Source: a virus (taxonomy: Duplodnaviria; Caudoviricetes). Taken from it: a DNA stretch of 64,000 bases. Position 1 is the stretch's first letter, and each line of letters begins with the position of its first letter. The DNA is taken from positions 1 to 64,000 of the IMG/VR virus record IMGVR_UViG_3300047545_000306; one strand, written 5' to 3'. The translations under genes were made by a program, and so were the position numbers. The notes below the pieces were generated by a model. The model saw only the letters and a list, made by a program, of their open reading frames with translations. It searched no databases and had not been told where the DNA came from. Of the stretch, positions 8,999 through 30,613 are shown piece by piece.

Positions 8999-9033
8999 GT
9001 ATTAAGTATATCAGAATCATTGTATTTGTCAAG

Positions 9034-9114
9034 TACTCCTGGTGGGATTCGAACCCACACAACTTTCGTCTCCAGATTTTAAGTCTAGTATGTCTGCCAT
9101 TCCATCACAAGAGC
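9034..9114 (-). tRNA. tRNA-Leu(TAA)
   Basis: Loop CTTAAAA, long variable arm. Confidence 0.92.
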
Positions 9115-11028: not shown

Positions 11029-11085
11029 TGTCTCTCCCATGATTGTTATATGTCTATTATACGGCTGCCCTGCTTGGTTGTCAAG

Positions 11086-11157
11086 CACTCCCATCTGGAC
11101 TCGAACCAAAAATACCAGATCCAAAATCTGGGGTGTTGCCAATTACACCATAGGAGT
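11086..11157 (-). tRNA. tRNA-Gln(TTG)
   Basis: CCAGA-TTTTGGA-TCTGG. Confidence 0.9.
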
Positions 11158-11160
11158 ATT

Positions 11161-11245
11161 GCTCCCAGCATATTGGCTACTAATACCTGGGACTGTTGGG
11201 TGTGCATTACTTTCGCAATTGCACTCATTTAAGAGTGTAGCCACC
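11161..11245 (-). ncRNA. putative structured, pseudoknotted ncRNA between tRNA-Leu and tRNA-Gln
   Basis: GNRA-capped hairpin, plus a 3' hairpin whose loop GUAGCC is complementary to the 5' GGCUAC. Confidence 0.55.
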
Positions 11246-11246
11246 G

Positions 11247-11319
11247 TGCTTCCCATAGGATTCGAACCTATACTGATCAGTGTTTGAAGCTGATGTCTCT
11301 ACCGTTGGACTAGAGAAGC
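11247..11319 (-). tRNA. tRNA-Leu(CAA), short-variable-arm actinobacterial type
   Basis: D-arm GTCCAACGGTAGAGAC, loop TTCAAAC, short variable region, A73. Confidence 0.8.
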
Positions 11320-11680: not shown

Positions 11681-11770
11681 TTATAGTGAGCGAATGCTCT
11701 GGAGGCTGGCTTGATGTTGCCACGAGTGTGCCAAGCTATATCGCTGTCGCAATTGCTGGTTTGACTTCAT
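11681..11770 (-). CDS. 29-aa peptide leading the tRNA array
   Basis: MKSNQQLRQRYSLAHSWQHQASLQSIRSL with GGAGA RBS and TTGCAA-17-TACAAT promoter. Confidence 0.55.
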   Translation of the reverse strand: MKSNQQLRQRYSLAHSWQHQASLQSIRSL

Positions 11771-11818
11771 AGTTATCTCCATGTATTTATTGTAGCATAT
11801 GTTTTGTTTTATTGCAAG

Positions 11819-30292: not shown

Positions 30293-30297
30293 AAAAT

Positions 30298-30609
30298 AGC
30301 TATGATGATCGGTCATAGCCCAGAATCCTAATAGTCTATAGTGCGGACCATAGACGAAGTAATTCTGTTTGTAGACTTGTCGGATTTGCACCGTTTGACA
30401 TGGCTTCACCTGGAGTGCTTCCAGTTACCATACAAGTCCTAGTGGGATATCAGACTAATCAGATCCACATCCCTGAGTCGTTTCCTAAGACGAGTGACCA
30501 GCTCCGAACCTATGTCGTGAGGTGCTTACACGCCAGATTAACTACTGCCTGGACAGCAACAAGTGTTGACAATTTTACGTGCACTTGTACACGTACAGGT
30601 GATTAGCCT
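30298..30609 (-). ncRNA. run of putative structured ncRNAs between tRNA-Gly and tRNA-Asp
   Basis: Multiple long complementary segments, pseudoknots and a T-loop-like element; no credible ORF. Confidence 0.6.
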
Positions 30610-30613
30610 ATAG

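Follow-up and report, generated by a model that had tools for sequence, protein, structure and literature searches.

Position of the element in the tRNA operon

What occupies the 88 nt (11245..11158) between tRNA-Leu(CAA) and tRNA-Gln in the tRNA array of the phage analyzed here? Phage tRNA arrays are mostly annotated as tRNAs only, and an earlier note on this DNA had placed a novel non-coding RNA in this slot. The window, that is the whole 64,000-nt stretch that was analyzed, covers the first 64 kb of an IMG/VR virus record of 103 kb. The phage DnaE shares 55% identity with the DnaE of large Streptomyces phages, e.g. Wakanda and BillNye. IMG/VR contains many related viral contigs, and close relatives are also present in JGI, ENA, NCBI and Logan metagenome assemblies. 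The carrier is an uncultured freshwater (lake) phage related to actinophages.

ARAGORN and Rfam identified the array, which is on the minus strand, as Glu, Trp, Arg, Tyr, His, Leu(CAA) and Gln(UUG). The operon is headed by a TG-extended promoter-like site, TTGCAA-17-TACAAT (11789..11817, minus strand), which was located by a consensus scan and inspection of the sequence and is a consensus match only. It is followed by a 29-aa ORF and then by Trp-Arg-Tyr-His-Leu-element-Gln. A perfect TTGACA-17-TATAAT was found at 11056-11084 (minus strand), right after tRNA-Gln and ahead of thyX, so the tRNA operon and thyX are apparently promoted separately. With a promoter-like site before tRNA-Trp and the thyX promoter after tRNA-Gln, the element lies inside the tRNA operon. 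It is a non-tRNA gene there, on the same strand as the tRNAs. The 29-codon ORF (MKSNQQLRQRYSLAHSWQHQASLQSIRSL) has a GGAG Shine-Dalgarno sequence and is located at 11681-11770 (minus strand), between tRNA-Glu and tRNA-Trp. It is conserved in two relatives (L004 and L066) and may encode a leader peptide for the operon.

The element is a folded 83-base RNA (minus strand, 11245..11163) with a tail of 3-5 nt. Its upstream neighbor (11246..11319, minus strand) is a 74-nt class-I tRNA with the Leu anticodon CAA, called by ARAGORN and scoring 51.8 bits with the Rfam tRNA model; it ends in A73-C74 and its CCA is not encoded. The 3′ end of this tRNA is at 11246 according to ARAGORN and at 11247 according to Rfam, and G1 of the element is at 11245. 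The downstream neighbor, called by both programs, is tRNA-Gln(UUG) (11085..11157, minus strand). A conserved core, positions 1-83 (11163..11245, minus strand; G1 = 11245, A83 = 11163), is common to both alleles described below and extends from just after A73-C74 of the tRNA to the base of hairpin H3. Homology between the alleles stops at A83; the variable tail before the next tRNA (11158..11162, minus strand) is GCAAU in the window and AUU in allele B. The earlier note had put an RNA at 11161-11245 and this placement was borne out, as the element starts directly after A73-C74 and the proposed end at 11161 is 3 nt ahead of tRNA-Gln (11157). The offset of G1 after A73-C74 is the same as that of tRNA position +1 in sister arrays, one base past the discriminator. 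Every copy of the element is preceded by a class-I tRNA-Leu type ending in A73-C74.

Class-I tRNAs of 74 nt that lack a long variable arm and carry Leu anticodons CAA, UAG or UAA were observed in the window (11246-11319, minus strand) and in L083, L102, L105 and L112. They share the acceptor GCUUCUC, A73 and the D-arm, and a normal class-II tRNA-Leu(UAA) is encoded alongside at 9033-9114. To our knowledge bacterial tRNA-Leu genes are class II, so the class-I tRNAs with Leu anticodons may or may not be charged with leucine.

Predicted fold of the element

Folding of the element suggested a Y-shaped 5′ domain formed by P1, H1 and H2, and a bulged 3′ hairpin, H3. The RNAfold minimum free energy (MFE) of the window allele is -25.5 kcal/mol (z = -2.0) and the second allele has z = -2.8; the predicted fold thus appears modestly more stable than expected by chance. 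In the nested ensemble pair probabilities are about 0.8-0.99 for P1, H1, H2 and outer H3. The three hairpins described earlier were all recovered, both in the sequence and in the computed fold, and the 5′ domain was kept when the element was folded together with both flanking tRNAs.

All parts of the fold are on the minus strand. The 5′ strand of P1, GGUGGC (11240..11245), pairs with 11199-11205 (GC.ACACC) in both the MFE and the centroid structure, with probabilities of 0.89-0.94; it is invariant and overlaps the putative pseudoknot strand GGCUAC (11237-11242). H1 (11222..11237) is the hairpin CACUC-UUAAAU-GAGUG, predicted by MFE and pair probabilities. H2 (11206..11219; probabilities 0.86-0.99) is the hairpin AUUGC-GAAA-GUAAU, which has a GNRA tetraloop and stacks directly on P1. 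P1 (6 bp) and H2 (5 bp, GAAA cap) together form a minihelix of 11 bp into which the H1 arm is inserted, and the strands of the three-way junction are UA, CA and none (2, 2 and 0 nt). The linker CAACAG (11193..11198) is unpaired in the MFE and centroid structures and invariant in both alleles. H3 (11163..11192), again predicted by MFE and pair probabilities, has 11 bp, a bulged G77 and the 7-nt loop AGUAGCC (11175-11181); its sequence is UCCCAGGUAUU-AGUAGCC-AAUAU(G)CUGGGA.

The earlier note had also paired the 5′ end of the RNA with the H3 loop. The complement is indeed present: GGCUAC (element positions 4-9) can form 6 Watson-Crick pairs with AGUAGCC, with a duplex energy of -8.2 kcal/mol, and a 6-bp complement of this kind, between the loop and a sequence outside it, occurs in 3.3% of dinucleotide shuffles. 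The pairing itself is unproven. P1 and the pseudoknot compete for three bases, G4-C6, and the formation of six pairs by a 7-nt loop requires opening of five inner H3 pairs, at a cost of only about 1.6 kcal/mol. Covariation speaks neither for nor against the pseudoknot, because neither allele varies at these bases. We consider such a pseudoknot possible. The same complement (-8.2 kcal/mol), its frequency in shuffles (3.3%) and the low cost of melting inner H3 (~1.6 kcal/mol) could also be explained by a bistable switch, in which the 5′ end would alternate between P1 and the H3 loop and sense a ligand or partner. This is highly improbable, since P1 is strongly preferred in the nested ensemble, covariation and an Rfam riboswitch match are absent, and there is no regulated gene downstream, thyX having its own perfect promoter (11084-11056).

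Comparison with known RNAs and search for coding capacity

Rfam models detected no family on the element at the gathering score, nor on its strand at E<=10 in a 1-kb search. This agrees with the earlier note, where no riboswitch or ribozyme had been recognized. In the same search the seven neighboring tRNAs scored 44-69 bits and the tRNA family RF00005 was absent over the element. ARAGORN, run at thresholds of 80-90% and with introns allowed, found no tRNA on the element strand; relaxed settings gave a single spurious metazoan-mitochondrial call on the opposite strand. Descent from a tRNA was not detected by alignment either: the best local alignments to 264 distinct tRNAs of the clade scored 18-19, against a mean of 21 for shuffled sequences. 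On the basis of covariance model, ARAGORN and alignment statistics we rejected a tRNA or a degenerate tRNA. Resemblances to tRNAs that were noted by eye, namely CUUAAAA, the GAAA-capped arm and CUGGGAGCA as in the 3′ end of tRNA-Gln(CUG), are at chance level.

The earlier note had suggested a ribozyme as one form of the novel RNA. Theta ribozymes abut phage tRNAs, often tRNA-Leu (PMC10879173), which made a search for HDV-like folds relevant. We used a permissive descriptor with P1 starting from +1, P3 (3 bp)/L3 directly before the P1 3′ strand, P2 extending to the 3′ end and a C at the start of J4/2. It gave 0 solutions between the tRNA 3′ end and the end of tRNA-Gln, and the HDV-like/theta fold was rejected. 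Hammerhead, twister, pistol and hatchet models had no Rfam match at E<=10, and CUGA is absent from the element sequence. A self-cleaving ribozyme, of a new class or HDV-like, that cuts its own 5′ end and frees the upstream tRNA would fit the place directly 3′ of tRNA-Leu, as in tRNA-associated theta ribozymes (PMC10879173), the high sequence conservation and the possible pseudoknot involving the 5′ end. Yet Rfam ribozyme families are absent at E<=10, the permissive HDV-like descriptor is without solution, the CUGANGA box is missing, junction strands of 2, 2 and 0 nt leave no space for a catalytic core, and processing of the neighboring tRNAs already accounts for release. We regard this explanation as extremely unlikely. 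The ribozyme part of the earlier proposal thus found no support, as the element has no known self-cleaving core, a 2/2/0-nt junction and no nested HDV-like fold. What was retained of that proposal is a non-tRNA, non-coding structured unit in a tRNA slot which would be set free by processing of the tRNAs on either side, has homologs and matches no Rfam family.

Coding candidates were rejected. The sole ATG of the element heads a 15-codon frame and is missing in allele B; a 60-aa ORF at 11046..11228 crosses tRNA-Gln and is spurious. A search of the 103-kb phage genome for antisense targets gave chance matches only, of up to 12 nt, and neither a target nor a partner protein came to light. Exact-match searches for a host copy or CRISPR-repeat mimic found neither the H3 20-mer nor the core 22-mer in 185,579 GTDB species genomes. 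No homolog, T4 RNAC and RNAD included, was detected by blastn against 50,697 phage records (E<=10), where only chance fragments in coding regions were found, and cultured phages gave no match. The element is non-coding and structured, and is neither a tRNA nor a catalogued RNA.

Occurrence and allelic variation

The element was found in five assemblies as two alleles: allele A in the window, L111 and L066, and allele B in L083 and L125. L111 is a Logan contig identical to the window and L125 is also a Logan contig. Among 80 thyX-linked relatives L066 alone carries the element, with 100% identity; pattern scans of IMG/VR added L083. A covariance model, CM R1, was used to search 82 sources (the window and 81 loci), 35 complete records of relatives and 31 further loci obtained via neighboring proteins. 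It recovered only the known copies and L125, scoring 118 and 110 bits on the core. Weak hits of this model in L030 and L099 are in coding sequence and were discarded.

Searches of IMG/VR with exact 18-20-mers (positions 1-18, 32-51 and 61-78) detected only the two known contigs and a chance match of L084 to the 32-51 probe; matches of 20-21 nt in L084 and L049 correspond to a coding region and a gene start (SD-TAATG). All 12 hits of an 18-mer scan of JGI metagenomes and all 5 hits of a loops-only pattern, the latter unstructured, were due to chance. Anchoring on the upstream tRNA revealed 6 further arrays, and the element is present in 0 of the 4 that reach past that tRNA. In total about 130 related arrays, including those of very close relatives, are without the element, which is therefore dispensable, i.e. 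accessory.

The two alleles are identical at 80 of 83 positions; for orthologous tRNAs from these arrays the identity is only 70-89%. Allele B differs from allele A by U19A, by C57U together with G80A, and by its tail. U19A creates a sixth pair in H1 and leaves a UAAA loop; the double change converts C57:G80 of H3 to U:A and is compensatory. All three substitutions fit the fold, and three random substitutions would contain a compensatory double change and leave every pair intact with a probability of P = 0.005. Evidence for covariation comes from one pair, because there are only two alleles; for the same reason a shuffle control (241/500), which had only two distinct rows, was uninformative. 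Allele B is the same in L083 and L125 despite clearly different adjacent tRNA-Ser(gct) genes. The high identity points to strong constraint, recent cassette exchange, or both. The check for homologs and covariation proposed in the earlier note yielded homologs, exact boundaries and one compensatory pair, with two alleles being far too few for proof of the R-scape type.

Exchange of the element with a tRNA

Four contexts of the element (E) were observed: His-Leu(caa)-E-Gln, Ser(tga)-Leu(caa)-E-Gln, Leu(tag)-E-Ser(gct) and Ser(tga)-Leu(caa)-E-Ser(gct). The edges of the cassette are exact, with the end of a tRNA on one side and the base of H3 on the other. In two sister arrays, L112 and L113, the order is Ser(tga)-Leu(caa)-AAA-Leu(taa)-Ser(gct), which shows that the element takes the slot held elsewhere by a class-I tRNA-Leu(UAA). 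A slot of a tRNA array can therefore hold a non-tRNA RNA cassette, which trades places with a tRNA among sister phages and has its first base exactly where that of a tRNA would be.

Other unusual sequences in the window and in related arrays

Several further sequences of unusual kind were noticed in the arrays of relatives. A 92-nt class-II tRNA-like gene, reported by ARAGORN as '???' and having a 2-nt anticodon (6-nt anticodon loop), is present in L066 (1935-2054) and also in L005, L009, L065, L070, L123 and L125; it follows tRNA-Leu(caa/tag) and is always succeeded by a 28-nt hairpin, GGUAAAG...CUUUACC. A 110-nt non-tRNA element lies between tRNA-Trp and an uncalled tRNA-Tyr (L012:2307-2417, L005:1898-2005, L009:1931-2038). 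It contains a UUGCGAAAGCA hairpin, and its 5′ CCAGG is complementary to the loop of its own 3′ hairpin, a topology which is the same as that of the window element. CM R1 detected no homology between the window element and this 110-nt element of L005, L009 and L012.

In the gap between tRNA-Met and tRNA-Leu(taa) of L009 (103 nt) and in L021 (82 nt) there is a gene in the position of tRNA-Ile(UAU) that was missed by ARAGORN; its acceptor and T arm are normal, the D-arm is missing and an extra region of 22 nt is present. ARAGORN also left uncalled a number of cloverleaf-like sequences whose T arms are good, one resembling tRNA-Tyr(GUA) among them; they are located in the Trp-Arg gap of L066 (76 nt) and in gaps of 80-85 nt in L004, L025 and L049. 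Because of these uncalled sequences tRNA counts in the clade are underestimated. The second array of the window has a 320-nt gap between tRNA-Gly and tRNA-Asp (30293-30612, minus strand), in which CM R1 found no match; in relatives the Asn-(Gly)-Asp-Thr stretch retains gaps of about 150-190 nt. The array of L034 is headed by a tRNA (2605) whose anticodon is UCA; it is 'SeC' according to ARAGORN and is a possible UGA suppressor.

Proposed explanation and alternatives

The reading that we prefer, and hold with about even confidence, is that the element is a selected structured small RNA, an accessory non-coding cassette in a tRNA slot that would be excised by tRNA-maturing enzymes and act in trans. 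It would be co-transcribed with Trp-Arg-Tyr-His-Leu(CAA) and Gln, and the enzymes that mature the adjacent tRNAs may excise it as an RNA of about 83-89 nt. As in ordinary tRNA processing, the RNase P cut at position +1 of tRNA-Gln would set its 3′ end. In sister arrays the A73-C74 end of a tRNA is set when RNase P cleaves the tRNA downstream of it. We propose that RNase P could likewise be recruited by the P1/H2 stack and cut between C74 and G1, because P1/H2, starting at G1, resembles the acceptor/T-arm minihelix of a pre-tRNA. Model hairpin substrates have about 12 bp from the cleavage site and a single-stranded 3′ flank; P1 and H2 together provide 11 bp from G1 (probabilities 0.86-0.99) and the flank is CAAC, not RCCA. 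A single cut at C74/G1 would then finish the 3′ end of the upstream tRNA and free the element, whose 5′ end could re-pair with the H3 loop after release. Speculatively, the freed RNA would most likely be a trans-acting, protein-binding structured RNA, a role also supposed for RNAC and RNAD of phage T4; a binding or decoy role for a protein is a guess by analogy with these, and the decoy or anti-defence role suggested in the earlier note is equally speculative.

The data could also be explained by a neutral passenger, i.e. a functionless spacer, heavily decayed tRNA or recombination scar that moves with tRNA cassettes and owes its near-identity to recent exchange. The element is sporadic and dispensable, being present in five assemblies and missing from about 130 arrays, and its slot is held by tRNA-Leu(UAA) in sister arrays. 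Moreover, the CUUAAAA of H1 in allele B equals the 7-nt anticodon loop of class-I tRNA-Leu(UAA), H2 is like the GAAA-capped variable arm of the class-II tRNA-Leu(UAA) of the window, and the outer H3 stem with the tail (CUGGGAGCA) has a match in the tRNA-Gln(CUG) of relatives, at the 3′ end of the acceptor. Against tRNA decay, alignment to the 264 clade tRNAs was no better than that of shuffles (18-19 vs a mean of 21), and neither Rfam at E<=10 nor relaxed ARAGORN gave a tRNA match. A scar or spacer is also hard to reconcile with cassette boundaries that coincide exactly with helix ends, with three substitutions that keep the fold, compensatory pair included (P = 0.005), and with an allele B unchanged beside clearly divergent tRNA-Ser genes. 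On balance, we find a neutral passenger rather unlikely. Less likely still is an element that acts in cis only, as punctuation, its fold guiding processing or protecting the neighbors, especially during 3′ maturation of the CCA-less class-I tRNA-Leu, and the excised piece being degraded. The constant presence of the same tRNA type, ending in A73-C74, upstream and the start of P1 at exactly the tRNA-like +1 offset would be expected in that case. Phages do use RNA elements beside tRNAs for 3′-end formation, e.g. theta ribozymes, often by tRNA-Leu (PMC10879173). However, in most cases this tRNA type has another tRNA directly behind it and does without the element, and H3 and the linker are conserved as much as the 5′ domain, which is beyond the needs of a cleavage guide.

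A more specific version of a trans-acting role is that the cassette is a tRNA mimic which replaces class-I tRNA-Leu(UAA), is released by RNase P via P1/H2 and serves as a decoy for a tRNA-directed enzyme of the host, presumably an actinobacterium, for instance an anticodon nuclease of the VapC or another type. H1 bears CUUAAAA (allele B) or CUUAAAU, comparable to the anticodon-loop sequence of class-I tRNA-Leu(UAA). Such a cassette would be a new RNA-based, exchangeable form of counter-defence, but we judge this version very doubtful.

Comparison with known systems

The preferred reading, a selected small RNA released from a tRNA operon, has precedents. The T4 species RNAC and RNAD (species 1 and 2) are about 120-140 nt long. 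They are small non-tRNA RNAs within the phage tRNA cluster, co-oriented with the tRNAs, and their role is unknown (PMC3014915); they were validated by Northern analysis (PMC9697503). The element is likewise a non-tRNA RNA in a phage tRNA cluster and in the same orientation, but it is shorter, has no sequence similarity to RNAC and RNAD and is a predicted transcript, in a freshwater phage with actinophage relatives. Theta ribozymes are HDV-like and abut phage tRNAs, often tRNA-Leu (PMC10879173). The element similarly adjoins a phage tRNA at its 3′ end and a pseudoknot of its 5′ end is conceivable; unlike theta ribozymes, it has no HDV-family Rfam hit, and no nested double pseudoknot, P3/L3 or J4/2 cytosine can be placed in it.

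With regard to a possible entry of RNase P, its hairpin and minihelix substrates include acceptor/T-arm mimics, the 4.5S RNA precursor and the precursor of phage phi80 M3 RNA. In contrast to these substrates, the helix of the element is broken by H1, its GAAA cap is not a T-loop and CAAC is not RCCA; in common with them, it has an 11-bp coaxial P1/H2 helix from the putative cleavage site, an uninterrupted 3′ strand and a capped end. If P1/H2 is truly an RNase P entry site, this would provide a simple rule for the delivery of arbitrary small RNAs from tRNA operons, and a defined construct for asking what such RNAs do, a question that has stood since T4 RNAC and RNAD. The practical weight of the element itself is modest, because on present evidence its family is very small and any role is speculative. 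In kind, non-tRNA small RNAs in phage tRNA operons are already known; within that kind the element is a new and very small family, outside those catalogued so far.
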